Source: an uncultured SAR86 cluster bacterium (GTDB lineage Bacteria; Pseudomonadota; Gammaproteobacteria; Magnimaribacterales; AG-339-G14). From it: a DNA stretch of 64,000 nt. Where the stretch lies: contig CACPDB010000001.1 in assembly GCA_902632605.1 (NCBI GenBank), positions 137,090-201,089 of the forward strand, read 5' to 3'. The notes below the pieces were generated by a model. That model made no database searches, had not been told where the DNA came from, and saw only the letters and a list, made by a program, of their open reading frames with translations. The position numbers and the translations under genes were made by a program. Below, one piece after another: positions 2,476 to 41,685 of this stretch (its first letter is position 1; each line of letters begins with the position of its first letter).

Positions 2476-3438
2476 ATGTCAGTCTTTCAGGAATTTCTAG
2501 AAAATTCTCTGCAGCAAAAAATTAAGCAACTGGTTCCTCTCACAGGCGGAGCATCTGCAGACATCAATCGTATTATTTTTGCTAATGAAGATGAACTGAT
2601 TGTTAGAAGAACTTTGTCACAAGAAAAATCCGTGATGGCAATTCCAAAAATCTTAGAAGCAAAAATACAAAAAGTTGTTAAAAAAAATGGAGCTCCTGTA
2701 CCAGCAATAATATTTGAGTTTTCTGAAGGCGAAGAAATAGGTGAAGGATATGTCATGGAAGCAATCCCAGGAGAGACTATTCCTCGTAAAATTCTTAGAG
2801 ATGAAAAATTTGCAACTGCTCGAGAAAAACTTCCTTTTGAAATCGGTAAGTCCTTAGCCAAAATACACCGAACACAATTAGACGATTTAAAAGCTCTTGA
2901 CCAAGTGACCTTTTCAGATTCTCTAGAAAAACTTTTTCAGGTATATCTTAGTTTCAATCAACCACAACCGGTCTTTGATTTGGCTTTCAAATGGCTGGAA
3001 GCCCAAAAGCTTACAGAATATGGCGATGTTTTGGTGCATGGCGATTTTCGCTTTGGTAACTTTATTATTTCTGAAGAAAATTTAGAATCAATTATTGACT
3101 GGGAGTTAGCGCACATTGGCAACCCTATGGAAGATCTGGGATGGCTTTGCGTACGTTCCTGGCGATTTGGTAATGTTGAAAAAAGAGTAGGCGGCCTGGG
3201 AGATATCAAAGATCTTATCGCTGGTTATGAATCTAATTCTGATATAAAAATTGACGAATCACAGCTTGATGTATGGCAGCTTTATGGTTCATTACGATGG
3301 GGAGTTATTTGTATGATGCAAACTTTTGCTCATCTGAGTGGAATGGTAAATTCAGTAGAAAAAGCAGCAATAGGCAGAAGAGTATCCGAAACGGAATTTG
3401 ATTTAATGAATATGATCAAACATAAAAATTTCTTATGA
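2476..3438 (+). CDS. APH-family phosphotransferase (LvaA-like acyl-CoA kinase)
   Basis: LVHGDFRFGN and IDWELAHIGNPMEDLGW motifs. Lies 1 bp after the ACAD stop. Confidence 0.88.
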   Translation: MSVFQEFLENSLQQKIKQLVPLTGGASADINRIIFANEDELIVRRTLSQEKSVMAIPKILEAKIQKVVKKNGAPVPAIIFEFSEGEEIGEGYVMEAIPGETIPRKILRDEKFATAREKLPFEIGKSLAKIHRTQLDDLKALDQVTFSDSLEKLFQVYLSFNQPQPVFDLAFKWLEAQKLTEYGDVLVHGDFRFGNFIISEENLESIIDWELAHIGNPMEDLGWLCVRSWRFGNVEKRVGGLGDIKDLIAGYESNSDIKIDESQLDVWQLYGSLRWGVICMMQTFAHLSGMVNSVEKAAIGRRVSETEFDLMNMIKHKNFL

Positions 3439-18984: not shown

Positions 18985-19246
18985 TTTTACCTCTATTTGT
19001 ATTCAAAATTGATAAGATCCTGTCAGAATAGGAATATTTTTTATAGTAACTTTTATATGAGTTACACACAAAAGTTTATTTAATTTTTTTAAATTCAAGT
19101 CATGTCTATCTTTGCTTGCATTATCATGGTGCAAACCTAATAACTTTATAAGTTATTGTTTTTATTGATTTTTTTTAAAGTGGTTAAAAATTAACCAATT
19201 TAGAAAAAATACTTATGTTTAAAGGCTTCAATCAATCTTCCTTATT

Positions 19247-38503: not shown

Positions 38504-39403
38504 ATGCAAATAAATTTTATGAAGCCAAGAAAGATAGCATCAGTACTATCCATTATTCTTATCTTGATTTCTATTTTTTCACTTGCGTTTAGAGGTTTGA
38601 ATGCGGGTTTAGATTTTACCGGTGGGACACTGATTGAAATAAGATTATCTGAGCCGACAAATTTAGAAGATATGAGAGAAGTTTTAGGTTCTAAAATGGA
38701 TGAAGATTTTCAAGTTTCATATTTTGGTTCTGAACAAGATGTGATCATAAAAATTCCTGGAGGATCAGAAAATAATCTTTCAAATGAAATTATCTCTTCA
38801 CTTAATGAAGTATTCACATTTGATCTTAGACGAAAGGATTTTATTGGTCCGCAAATTGGAGAAGAGCTTAGAGATCAAGGTGGCTTGGGTATTTTAGCTG
38901 CTATGTTGGTAATGATGGTCTACATCATGTTTAGATTTCAATTCAAGTTTGCCATCGGCGCTCTCTTGGCTCTCGTTCATGATGTTTTAATAGTATTGGG
39001 CTTTTTCTCAATTTTTTATATCGGTTTTAACTTGACGGTACTAGCAGCCGTATTGGCAGTTATCGGTTATTCCCTTAATGACACAATAGTAGTTTCAGAC
39101 CGAATTAGAGAGAATTATCGTAAGAAGAGAAAATCAGACAATGTAGATGTCATCAACAGATCTCTAAATCAGATGTTAGGAAGAACTTTAATTACATCTT
39201 TAACTACTTTGTTGGTTTTATTTGCACTGCTAGTTTTAGGCGGTGATTTCATTCAGAATTTTGCAATTGCTTTGATATGCGGTGTCATTGTAGGTACTTA
39301 TTCATCAATTTACGTTCTTTGTAATAATTTAATTTTTATGAATTTAAATTTTGAAGATCTAGCTATCAAAAAGAGCGAAACTTACGATGACGGCATGCCT
39401 TAA
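38504..39403 (+). CDS. secF: Protein translocase subunit SecF
   Basis: GLDFTGG, HDV, GYSLNDTIVV.DRIRE, GTYSS. Confidence 0.96.
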   Translation: MQINFMKPRKIASVLSIILILISIFSLAFRGLNAGLDFTGGTLIEIRLSEPTNLEDMREVLGSKMDEDFQVSYFGSEQDVIIKIPGGSENNLSNEIISSLNEVFTFDLRRKDFIGPQIGEELRDQGGLGILAAMLVMMVYIMFRFQFKFAIGALLALVHDVLIVLGFFSIFYIGFNLTVLAAVLAVIGYSLNDTIVVSDRIRENYRKKRKSDNVDVINRSLNQMLGRTLITSLTTLLVLFALLVLGGDFIQNFAIALICGVIVGTYSSIYVLCNNLIFMNLNFEDLAIKKSETYDDGMP

Positions 39404-39435
39404 AAAAAAGGGAGGTTCGAAGACCTCCCTTTTTT
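39403..39435. terminator. Bidirectional intrinsic terminator
   Basis: A-tract, GGGAGGT-tcgaag-ACCTCCC, T-tract. Shared by secF and the minus-strand peptide cassette. Confidence 0.9.
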
Positions 39436-39438
39436 GTT

Positions 39439-39531
39439 CTAAAACAAAAATAAAATCAATACAGTAGAGATTAAGAATAATCCAATTACTGCGTCGATTT
39501 TACCAAGCTTTTGATGTCTTACTTTATACAT
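39439..39531 (-). CDS. 30-aa single-TM microprotein (not in ORF track)
   Basis: MYKVRHQKLGKIDAVIGLFLISTVLILFLF*. ATG overlaps the end of the YRG peptide and the stop abuts the terminator. Confidence 0.55.
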   Translation of the reverse strand: MYKVRHQKLGKIDAVIGLFLISTVLILFLF

Positions 39532-39691
39532 CTCTAACACCGCGATACCATTTAGGATAAACAGTAGTAGATTTCTTTTTGTTTTCAGACACTATAGCAT
39601 CATGTCTTATTCCACGGTAAATGCCAGAAGAAATAACTTTTTGTTCCTTCGCAACATTTTGTGGAGTTTGTTTGATACCTCTGTAGTACAT
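39524..39691 (-). CDS. 55-aa basic YRG-repeat peptide (DUF4278-like; not in ORF track)
   Basis: GGAGG RBS. MYYRGIKQTPQNVAKEQKVISSGIYRGIRHDAIVSENKKKSTTVYPKWYRGVRDV*, with three YRG[IV] motifs, downstream of a glutamine riboswitch. Confidence 0.85.
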   Translation of the reverse strand: MYYRGIKQTPQNVAKEQKVISSGIYRGIRHDAIVSENKKKSTTVYPKWYRGVRDV

Positions 39692-39755
39692 CGGTTTGAC
39701 CTCCAGTTTTCGTTTCGATTTCGTACATACGCTTCCCAGCGTACACCCTTCTCAA

Positions 39756-39884
39756 CGCGTTCCTTCAGTAAAACTTTCGGTCTCGTTCCCCTTACGGGTA
39801 CTTGCTTACCTATCTTTTAGATAGAGGTTTTCAGGTTTTCCTACTTCCGTTCAATGCACTAAAAAAGTGCATTGAATGAACGAT
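39756..39884 (-). promoter_or_regulatory. Glutamine-I riboswitch (glnA RNA motif) with expanded P3
   Basis: AUCGUUCA-[P2 UUCAAUGCAC/GUGCAUUGAA]-CGGAAGUAG-[P3]-CUGAAGGAACGCG. All conserved glnA-motif blocks are present in order. Confidence 0.85.
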
Positions 39885-39892
39885 TTAAGTGC

Positions 39893-39922
39893 ATTTTATC
39901 AAAAATAATAAAGGACTGTAAA
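39893..39922 (-). promoter_or_regulatory. Sigma70 promoter for the riboswitch cassette
   Basis: TTTACA, about 18 bp spacer, extended -10 TGaTAAAAT. Predicted start falls at the riboswitch 5' end. Confidence 0.6.
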
Positions 39923-39927
39923 CTTTT

Positions 39928-40719
39928 TTAAATAAAAGATTTTTTTATCTCTTTGTTTATGGCTTTAACACATGACATGTTGCCAGCAACAATATTATGG
40001 GACAGTAATACGTTTTCTTCACCATTAAAATCATTGACGAAGCCTCCAGCTTCCATTACCAACAATGCACCTGCAGCAAAGTCCCACACTTTCATACCAT
40101 ATCCTAAAAATGCATCTAACTTTCCCGAAGCCACAAAAGCCAAATCTAATGCTGTTGATCCAGTTCTTCTTAAAGTCAAAGAGTTTGAATAAAGATTTCT
40201 TATTAAAGTAAGTTGATCAAATTTTGGTTCAAGATTGGGACCGCCATGAAAAGAATTACATATCAATGAGTTTTTTAAACCTTTTATTTCTGAAACTCTT
40301 ATGCGAGTTTTATTCAGAAAAGCTCCTTTTCCTTTTGAAGCATAATATTCATCATCTCTTGAAAGATCGTATATTAATCCATGTTCTATTGAGCCTTTAT
40401 GGAAACAAGCAATTGAAATTGAGTAAAAGGGAAAATCATGAATGAAGTTTGTGGTTCCATCCAAAGGATCGATAACCCAATGATAATCAGCATTCTGATT
40501 ACCCTGGCGACCAGACTCCTCTCCCTCAAAAGAATGATCAGGAAAAGATGTCTTTAAGGTATCGATGATTATGTTCTCTGCAATACTATCAACTTGGGTA
40601 ACAAAATCAGTTGGTCCTTTTTCAAAAACATTAATTTTGTCTCTACGGCGAGAAAATTTATGAATTTCCTTTGCTGCAAGTCTTGCGGCGTTAATAGCAA
40701 TAGTAACTTTTGGTTCCAT
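39928..40719 (-). CDS. suhB: Inositol monophosphatase / Nus factor SuhB
   Basis: DFVTQVD, GEE, WVIDPLDGTTNF, RRTGS.ALD, WDFAAG. Confidence 0.93.
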   Translation of the reverse strand: MEPKVTIAINAARLAAKEIHKFSRRRDKINVFEKGPTDFVTQVDSIAENIIIDTLKTSFPDHSFEGEESGRQGNQNADYHWVIDPLDGTTNFIHDFPFYSISIACFHKGSIEHGLIYDLSRDDEYYASKGKGAFLNKTRIRVSEIKGLKNSLICNSFHGGPNLEPKFDQLTLIRNLYSNSLTLRRTGSTALDLAFVASGKLDAFLGYGMKVWDFAAGALLVMEAGGFVNDFNGEENVLLSHNIVAGNMSCVKAINKEIKKSFI

Positions 40720-41626: not shown

Positions 41627-41685
41627 TGCTATTTCTTAGTGCAAATAAATTTTTTAAATATCCATTTTTGAATAGTTTTAGTGCA
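41627..41685. promoter_or_regulatory. Two NtrC-like boxes upstream of glnK
   Basis: TGCTATTTCTTAGTGCA (41627-41643) and TGAATAGTTTTAGTGCA (41669-41685), 17-bp variants of TGCAC-N7-GTGCA, 42 bp apart. Confidence 0.6.

Follow-up and report, generated by a model that had tools for sequence, protein, structure and literature searches.

The window analyzed here, a stretch of 64,000 nucleotides (G000:C1:137090-201089), belongs to an uncultured SAR86 cluster bacterium whose genome (G000) comprises 1.22 Mb in 19 contigs, with 34% G+C and 92.6% completeness. On its minus strand, behind a suhB-like gene, a glutamine riboswitch leads a small open reading frame (ORF) encoding a 55-amino-acid peptide. Two boxes that resemble binding sites for the nitrogen regulator NtrC lie at the start of this unit, one over the edge of its promoter and the other within the P2 hairpin of the riboswitch. 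Judged from the sequence, a single short stretch here probably doubles as DNA operator and RNA helix in the control of a small IF17-like protein. When 61 genomes were searched at the DNA level, 36 relatives proved to carry the locus, which makes 37 loci with the window's own. We refer to the genera of the window's family (f1) as g1 to g4, the window genome belonging to g1, and to other families as f2 to f4. Along the minus strand, the features of the locus are as follows.

39917..39922, minus strand: −35 hexamer (TTTACA) of the riboswitch/peptide promoter, identified by a promoter scan within the 3' end of the suhB-like gene; TTTACA is kept in the g1 genomes listed.

39893..39901, minus strand: extended −10 element, TGaTAAAAT, from the promoter scan; its final T is the first base of box 2.

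39877..39893, minus strand: box 2, TGAACGATTTAAGTGCA (RNA-sense TGCAC-TTAAATC-GTTCA), at about −7 to +10 relative to the predicted transcription start.

39754..39884, minus strand: glutamine riboswitch aptamer of the RF01739 type (cmscan, 42.2 bits, E 8e-6, above the gathering score of 35), whose second hairpin holds a conserved insert of about 69 nt.

39850..39876, minus strand: whole P2 hairpin, the first internal hairpin of the aptamer, with an 11-bp perfect stem and a 5-nt U loop, UUCAAUGCACU-UUUUU-AGUGCAUUGAA, from the minimum-free-energy fold.

39855..39871, no strand assigned: box 1, TGCACTAAAAAAGTGCA, a perfect dyad (exact TGCAC-N7-GTGCA) in the distal part of P2, at about +16 to +32.

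39700..39704, minus strand: Shine-Dalgarno sequence, GGAGG, 8 nt ahead of the ATG; CTGGAGG is kept in 37/37 loci.

39524..39691, minus strand: 55-amino-acid, DUF4278/IF17-like ORF with three YRG repeats, from the ORF list; its profile match is below the cut-off.

39402..39435, no strand assigned: two-way hairpin terminator shared with secF (GGGAGGT...ACCTCCC with T runs on both strands), read directly from the sequence and absent from the list produced by the promoter/terminator scan.

Of the promoter-like sites in the region, this one on the minus strand scored best, with 10/12 matches (TTTACA, an 18-bp spacer, and TAAAAT with a TG extension). The unit runs from the −35 element through the spacer, the extended −10 element, GCACTTAAAT, P1 (CGUUCA), P2, the core strand ACGGAAGUAGG, the insert, GAAGGAACG, and a 60-nt linker containing GGAGG to the 55-amino-acid ORF and the terminator. 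The suhB stop codon lies at 39928, and no terminator was seen between it and the riboswitch in the ORF list or the scan. Contigs from RNA libraries (3 runs from 3 studies) cover 39404-39866, which takes in the ORF and most of the aptamer, and leave 39867-40027 uncovered. This coverage is a weak sign that the locus is expressed.

A preliminary description of this DNA had placed two 17-mers 22 bp apart at 39855-39871 and 39877-39893, and we confirmed both positions, with 22 bp from start to start. It had also put the second box over the −10 edge and the predicted start, which proved correct: the −10 element ends at 39893, and box 2 extends from this last T through the A that closes the P1 strand. 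In its right half, GTTCA, box 2 coincides with the 5' strand of helix P1 and has its single mismatch to TGCAC-N7-GTGCA. The NtrC consensus of Escherichia coli is given as TGCACCAnnnTGGTGCA, with GCA and TGC as its most conserved parts (PMC8743547). As sequences, the boxes fit this consensus, being 17-bp dyads of the TGCACC-N5-GGTGCA type with GCA and TGC cores. They also show tandem, same-face phasing, 22 bp apart here, 22 and 44 bp upstream of the glutamine synthetase (GS) gene, and 42 to 43 bp upstream of glnK.

The exact motif TGCAC-N7-GTGCA occurs only twice in the 1,217,626 bases of the genome, once in P2 and once at C3:19695, 145 nt upstream of the gene for the large subunit of glutamate synthase (gltB). 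With one mismatch or fewer over the ten half-site positions, there were 14 matches genome-wide, 8 of them intergenic, in a genome whose intergenic share is about 6% by crude ORF calls. These eight sites comprise both riboswitch boxes, the gltB site, one 27 nt before the GS-ntrB-ntrC operon, one 81 nt before the gene for a second ammonium transporter (amt), and three others (between TonB-dependent receptor and alcohol dehydrogenase genes, between flavin oxidoreductase and ung genes, and after fabG). Given the rarity of the motif and its intergenic excess, chance does not explain the boxes. In contrast, strings resembling sigma-54 promoters (consensus as quoted in PMC4253122) were intergenic in 2/38 cases and showed no enrichment.

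Two related sites lie upstream of glnK, also in the window.

41627..41643, plus strand: glnK upstream box 1, TGCTATTTCTTAGTGCA, with two mismatches, 149 nt before the glnK ATG; the distance is the same in 13/14 g1 genomes.

41669..41685, plus strand: glnK upstream box 2, TGAATAGTTTTAGTGCA, with two mismatches, lying 107 nt ahead of the ATG and followed after about 55 nt by a conserved TATAAT; it is kept in 14/14 g1 genomes.

The second of these is the glnK box to which the preliminary description had likened riboswitch box 2, and the two are identical at 13/17 positions. Across the glnK upstream regions of the 14 g1 genomes, [AG]GTGCAAA is invariant and the left half is loose. The g3 genomes have TGCAC-N7-GTTCA upstream of glnK, the same pair of half-sites as riboswitch box 2, and the f2 genomes have TGGCAC-N5-TTGCA instead. 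Upstream of GS in g1, g2, and g4 there is a strong box, a second box 44 bp on, and a weaker one between them, giving the 22/44-bp phasing, and in an f3 genome TGGCAC-N5-TTGC follows a pair of boxes spaced by 22 bp.

We compared the 200-nt upstream regions of glnK, GS, gltB, and amt with those of 1142 called genes. AGTGCA was the top 6-mer, present at 4/4 nitrogen loci versus 55/1142 of all genes (p 4.8e-6; 473 k-mers tested). A position weight matrix (PWM) was also trained on six sites at the same four loci, with the riboswitch sites excluded. It scored the P2 box at 20.9 bits, rank 4 of 2,435,252 positions, the best outside the training set and above two of the training sites themselves; box 2 scored 13.7 bits, at rank 26. 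By its sequence context, TGCAC-N7-GTGCA is the nitrogen-regulon motif of this genome, recurring upstream of gltB, GS-ntrBC, amt, and glnK-amtB, with some circularity in how that recurrence was established. The preliminary description had proposed both this genome-wide scan and a check for an NtrC-family regulator, and the check likewise returned what it had anticipated. The genome encodes a single NtrC (TIGR01818, 599.9 bits, 465 amino acids), directly after ntrB and the GS gene in a GS-ntrB-ntrC operon, and no other protein combining a Sigma54_activat domain with an NtrC-type helix-turn-helix (HTH) was found. The C-terminal HTH, LLGWGRNTLARK, was identical in 21/21 genomes compared from the four genera and two other families, and a cognate NtrC with a DNA-binding domain is thus encoded.

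Other sites and leaders of the regulon also drew our attention. The one-mismatch box at window positions 19117-19133, TGCATTATCATGGTGCA, lies between the divergent flavin oxidoreductase (OYE-like) gene and ung. Two high-scoring boxes, one at G000:C4:12677 upstream of a 205-amino-acid porin-like gene and one at G000:C6:45487 between the TonB-dependent receptor and alcohol dehydrogenase genes, mark possible further members; relatives of the porin-like gene sit just before glnK in f3. The gltB leader (L005, about 2575-2655, minus strand; G000:C3) holds three tandem hairpins, GGCATATCACATGCC twice and CGCATTGTCCATGCG once, each followed by TTAAAAG, between the NtrC box and the gltB start. The g3 genomes have another glutamine riboswitch directly upstream of gltB, its P2 short and canonical (L103 665-735; G018:C1). 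Control of glutamate synthase appears to have been swapped between RNA and protein, with an NtrC box in the gltB leader of g1 versus a riboswitch in that of g3.

We looked at the conservation of the riboswitch boxes across 27 loci from g1 (14), g2 (7), and g4 (6), counting base pairs on the 24 distinct sequences. The segment between CGTTCA and ACGGAAGTA was always 26 nt long, with a 7-nt spacer in the box. At the base of P2, pairs 22-46, 23-45, 24-44, and 25-43 had changed on both sides in 7, 7, 13, and 10 of the 24 sequences. Pairs 26-42, 27-41, and 28-40 (T-A, G-C, and C-G), which form the TGC/GCA cores, were unchanged in 22, 24, and 23. The innermost box pairs, 29-39 and 30-38, were unpaired in 10 and 9 and never showed clean compensation. 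The preliminary description had held that an invariant P2 with a fixed spacer would support an operator and that free covariation would not. In the box-bearing clade the variation of P2 is restricted, in line with an operator: the TGC/GCA cores and the 7-nt spacer are fixed, and the four basal pairs covary.

The 3' arm of P2 was GTGCA in 16 of the 27 loci, ATGCA in 10, and AAGCA in 1; the 5' arm was TGCAC in 12 and had drifted elsewhere. Counted over the full box, mismatches numbered 0 in 4 genomes, 1 in 16, 2 in 5, and 3 in 2, and P2 contained at least one perfect half-site in 24/27. The claim that P2 is a perfect NtrC-type palindrome is therefore true of the window's box but of only 4/27 loci; in the rest, one arm is degenerate. 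The upstream TGCAC of box 2 was exact in 24/27, at a fixed distance from P1, with variation in the six bases between them and in the −35/−10 spacer. A good −10 element abuts this TGCAC in g1, g2, and g4 (TGATAAAAT, TATAAT, or TAATAT/TAGAAT). The g3 genomes and the four f2/f3 genomes with the locus have the riboswitch and the peptide and neither box. In a single-gene tree of NtrB with f2 and f3 as outgroups, g3 branched first, on a long branch, and g1, g2, and g4 formed a clade (support 95/94). With this topology and a g3 that lacks them, the boxes appear to have been gained once, or lost once in g3, and to have persisted as NtrB diverged to about 55% identity.

The riboswitch itself is more widespread. 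A family-wide pattern search found it in 44/50 genomes, and the core strands CGUUCA, ACGGAAGUA, and GAAGGAACG were present in 37/37 loci, with covariation in the basal pairs of P2, the only helix for which pairs were counted. At E ≤ 0.001, a whole-genome RF01739 screen returned nothing for the genome of the window, although cmscan of the window detects the riboswitch; the screen probably missed it owing to the 69-nt insert. We therefore judged the distribution of the riboswitch from the DNA and pattern searches and not from that screen. RF01739 is mentioned inside deletions of SAR86 metagenome-assembled genomes (MAGs) in PMC12379486. The structured insert of the second hairpin, about 70 nt (window 39760-39835, minus strand), contains GAAAACCUC, AAGCAAGUACC, and GGGAACGAGACCGAA. 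It is kept across f1, f2, and f3 and is missing from one g4 genome (G019, L042), where the hairpin is short and canonical. The CCUC of the insert may be able to pair with the Shine-Dalgarno sequence.

A contig scan for TGCAC-N6-CGTTCA...ACGGAAGTA returned 13 stretches, of which 9 were chance matches and 4 also had the 3' aptamer core; it recovered few family genomes and says nothing about distribution. Two of the four matched family members. The other two, L095 and L100, are near-identical Cellvibrionales-type MAG records with tandem glutamine aptamers; their P2 does not form an NtrC box, and TGCAC stands in the linker, with its distance to the second P1 unchanged. Pairing of a leader UGCAC with the 3' arm of P2 was also considered and was rejected as the main explanation: the predicted −10 element abuts TGCAC in all three genera, so most of TGCAC should not be transcribed.

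Sigma-54 (PF04552 and PF04963) was not found in the window genome, which is 92.6% complete. Among the 61 genomes, PF04552 was absent from g1 (0/17, including the window genome), g3 (0/7), and f4 (0/8), was present in g2 (6/7) and g4 (5/6) only as frames of 78 to 95 amino acids, and was full length in f2 (8/8) and f3 (7/8). The GAFTGA loop of NtrC is intact in g2, g4, f2, and f3 but reads GAFKGA in 9/9 g1 genomes, and in g3 the whole AAA+ domain has been lost, leaving a protein of 258 to 261 amino acids with a receiver domain and an HTH. Neither RpoN nor an intact GAFTGA loop was thus found in g1. Because rpoN is absent or a remnant, and the loop is altered or the AAA+ domain lost, NtrC in the window's family is, as far as its sequence tells, unable to work as a classical enhancer protein. 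With GAFKGA and without sigma-54, any activation of glnK in g1 must go through sigma-70. A candidate sigma-54 promoter at glnK was rejected: TGGC-N11-GC is present, but the spacing is one base too long and RpoN was not found. As a separate observation, sigma-54 dependence decays stepwise within this one family (ntrC at G000:C6:29709-31079, L003 5692-7089, and relatives), and the distribution of GlnD matches that of rpoN across families.

An ORF of 52 to 55 amino acids with three YRG repeats follows CTGGAGG in all 37 loci. The window ORF matches DUF4278 (PF14105) at E 0.0043 and 17.8 bits, under the gathering cut-off of 25.3. Among 15 aligned family members, 14 match at E ≤ 0.01, the best at 9e-6, and at the level of sequence the resemblance is real though sub-threshold. 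DUF4278 is the domain of the GS-inactivating factor IF17, and glutamine riboswitches of this kind are described as turning translation on with glutamine (Klahn et al. 2018, PMC6212724). The sole GS of the genome is GlnII-like, and there are two PII genes. GlnE was found in 0/61 genomes of the order; GlnD was found in 0/37 genomes of the family, the window's among them, and in 0/8 of f4, and was present in 15/16 f2 and f3 genomes. The DUF4278-like ORF and the lack of GlnD and GlnE strengthen the proposal of the preliminary description that the locus converges on the logic of the cyanobacterial NtcA/gifB system. A complex prediction for two GlnII copies with the peptide returned a score of 0.00 and gave no verdict, counting neither for nor against inhibition. 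In passing, the start of the 349-amino-acid GS ORF is probably called 22 codons upstream of the true one; the conserved start is MTDFK at L003 3503, and the extra codons (L003 3437-3502) overlap a conserved NtrC box.

The sequences of the boxes, the motif shared across the regulon, an encoded NtrC, the conservation pattern, and where the boxes stand relative to the predicted promoter led us to the following reading. We think it probable, with some room for doubt, that when nitrogen is limiting the peptide is repressed by phosphorylated NtrC (NtrC~P), which would occupy a sigma-70 promoter from about −7 to +32, and that translation of the peptide is opened by glutamine. The two boxes would be a tandem operator for the genome's only NtrC, spanning the promoter and the first 32 nt of the transcript. 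Under nitrogen limitation, NtrB would phosphorylate NtrC, and NtrC~P dimers would bind both boxes, 22 bp apart on the same helix face, and block initiation; bound NtrC~P would also stop read-through from suhB. Under nitrogen sufficiency, the promoter would be free and the leader made, and the operator bases would fold as P1 and P2 of the aptamer. Glutamine binding would then permit translation of the peptide, as expected of an ON-type riboswitch, and the peptide would probably damp the cell's single GlnII-type GS. With two inputs at one gene, expression would need both low NtrC~P and high glutamine. At glnK-amtB and GS, NtrC would bind upstream of sigma-70 promoters with weak −35 elements and act as an activator. 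In this scheme we infer NtrC binding, its repressive direction, the transcription start, the ON-type behavior of the riboswitch, and the target of the peptide.

These sequences might instead owe their conservation to RNA alone, the P2 apex resembling an NtrC box by accident and the TGCAC after the −10 element being a feature of the promoter, in its discriminator or start region. Any hairpin is a DNA palindrome, P2 has 8 to 12 bp in all relatives whether or not they carry boxes, the 5' arm of the box drifts in 10/14 g1 genomes, and unchanged pairs do not reveal the cause of their invariance. TGCAC-N6-CGTTCA is also found between the tandem aptamers of L095 and L100, near the chance rate. However, accident would have had to give the apex a match to a motif whose one other genomic copy is at gltB, together with the top PWM score outside the training set, and to set a second box exactly 22 bp away, in the same phasing as the GS boxes. 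It would also have had to keep TGC/GCA and the 7-nt spacer while four neighboring pairs turned over. Pairs 29-39 and 30-38 fail to form in 10 and 9 of the 24 sequences, so pairing is not what keeps the 3' arm constant, and the apex sequence is unrelated in g3, f2, and f3, where no RNA role for it is visible. On this balance we regard an explanation by RNA alone as unlikely.

Even if NtrC binds, it might do so for another purpose: as a roadblock to suhB transcription, as an activator of the promoter, or, with respect to the glnK boxes at a distance of 1.8 kb, as a reservoir or looping partner. The missing terminator between the suhB stop codon and the riboswitch and the presence of the glnK boxes within the same window are consistent with such roles. 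Other modes of action without sigma-54 are conceivable as well, Caulobacter NtrC being described as both activating and repressing sigma-70 promoters (10.1101/2023.06.06.543975). However, −7 to +32 is the classical position of a repressor, g2 and g4 have the boxes together with the riboswitch promoter, its −10 element again abutting TGCAC, and enhancer action over 1.8 kb needs sigma-54, which was not found in the genus; we consider another purpose improbable. It is less probable still, to the point of being a slim chance, that a regulator other than NtrC recognizes TGCAC-N7-GTGCA. The assignment to NtrC rests on the match to the consensus and on gene context, but the motif equals the E. coli NtrC box, a single protein combines Sigma54_activat with an NtrC-type HTH, and boxes precede NtrC's own operon, as autoregulation predicts. 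The f3 boxes, moreover, precede a TGGCAC-N5-TTGC promoter in the manner classical for NtrC.

Repression by NtrC~P at an operator shared with P1 and P2 also has to be set against several observations that weigh against it. The dyad is perfect in only 4/27 loci, two g4 genomes have three mismatches, and the RNA-sense 5' arm reads TGCCC, TGCTC, or TGCCT in 10/14 g1 genomes. The box-bearing genera form one clade and so represent one origin, and part of the invariance may reflect inheritance and not selection. For box 2 the PWM score is modest, and the conservation of the right half is uninformative, since the riboswitch itself dictates that sequence. Both the k-mer and the PWM tests are partly circular, three of the four loci having first been found with the same pattern. 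The NtrC concerned has no sigma-54 partner and carries GAFKGA. The start near 39886 is only a prediction, and the end of the RNA contigs at 39866 is a contig edge that neither marks a 5' end nor excludes read-through from suhB. Finally, the target of IF17 is a type I GS, and the window genome has only the GlnII type. Even so, none of the computational tests that might have overturned the interpretation given in the preliminary description did so.

Control of one gene by both a transcription factor and a riboswitch is already known, and the cyanobacterial gifB promoter is repressed by NtcA. The gifB gene of Synechocystis sp. PCC 6803 (PMC6212724) resembles the present locus in having an RF01739 aptamer, a DUF4278-type ORF, and the joining of a nitrogen transcription factor and a glutamine-sensing RNA on one small gene, in an organism that, like ours, lacks GlnD-type glutamine sensing and GS adenylylation. 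It differs in its regulator, which is the CRP-family NtcA and here is NtrC, a two-component protein with a Fis-type HTH; in its host, which here is a heterotrophic gammaproteobacterium with a GS of the GlnII type; and in its operator, which lies upstream of helices P1 and P2 and here lies inside them.

Enterobacterial NtrC represses the sigma-70 promoters glnAp1 and glnL. Its sites share with ours the 17-bp dyad with TGCA-type cores, the tandem arrangement, and the overlap with a sigma-70 promoter that is shut off at high NtrC~P (box consensus from PMC8743547). Here, however, there is no sigma-54 partner in the genus, the target is a riboswitch-led, inhibitor-like peptide and not glnA or glnL, and the boxes are AT-rich in the center (TGCAC-T-A5-A-GTGCA). 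NtrC of Rhodobacter capsulatus and Caulobacter crescentus is reported to be independent of sigma-54 and to activate and repress sigma-70 promoters (10.1101/2023.06.06.543975). The likeness lies in a damaged or missing GAFTGA loop and in action, here putative, at sigma-70 promoters of nitrogen-assimilation genes, as activator and as repressor. Those proteins are alphaproteobacterial and have loop deletions, whereas here we found a Thr-to-Lys change (GAFKGA) in g1 and loss of AAA+ in g3, with rpoN itself missing or reduced to a remnant of 78 to 95 amino acids. What is new here is the regulator, the host lineage, the type II GS, an NtrC free of sigma-54, and an operator within the aptamer helices. 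A literature search, conducted largely at the level of abstracts and excluding supplementary tables, came upon no published example of an operator set within the helices of an aptamer.

We offer the wider synthesis tentatively, as a possibility that falls somewhat short of being probable. A streamlined marine lineage may have lost sigma-54, GlnD, and, throughout its order, GlnE, and rebuilt cyanobacterial-style control of GS from other parts. NtrC would have become a sigma-70 repressor and activator that reports 2-oxoglutarate via PII and NtrB, with its operator written into P1 and P2. Selection would then act twice on the same 40 bp, once for protein binding to the DNA and once for ligand sensing by the RNA, and an IF17-like inhibitor of a type II GS would be gated by both inputs.

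Control of GS by inhibitor peptides is called unique to cyanobacteria by Klahn et al. (2018; PMC6212724). If the interpretation developed here is true, such control reaches abundant heterotrophic ocean bacteria, and the locus is a clean natural case of one sequence with two codes. It would likewise mean that within one family NtrC has changed stepwise from a sigma-54 enhancer protein to an ordinary sigma-70 regulator. For these uncultured cells, the ratio of peptide mRNA to glnK/amtB mRNA would be a simple transcript marker of nitrogen status.

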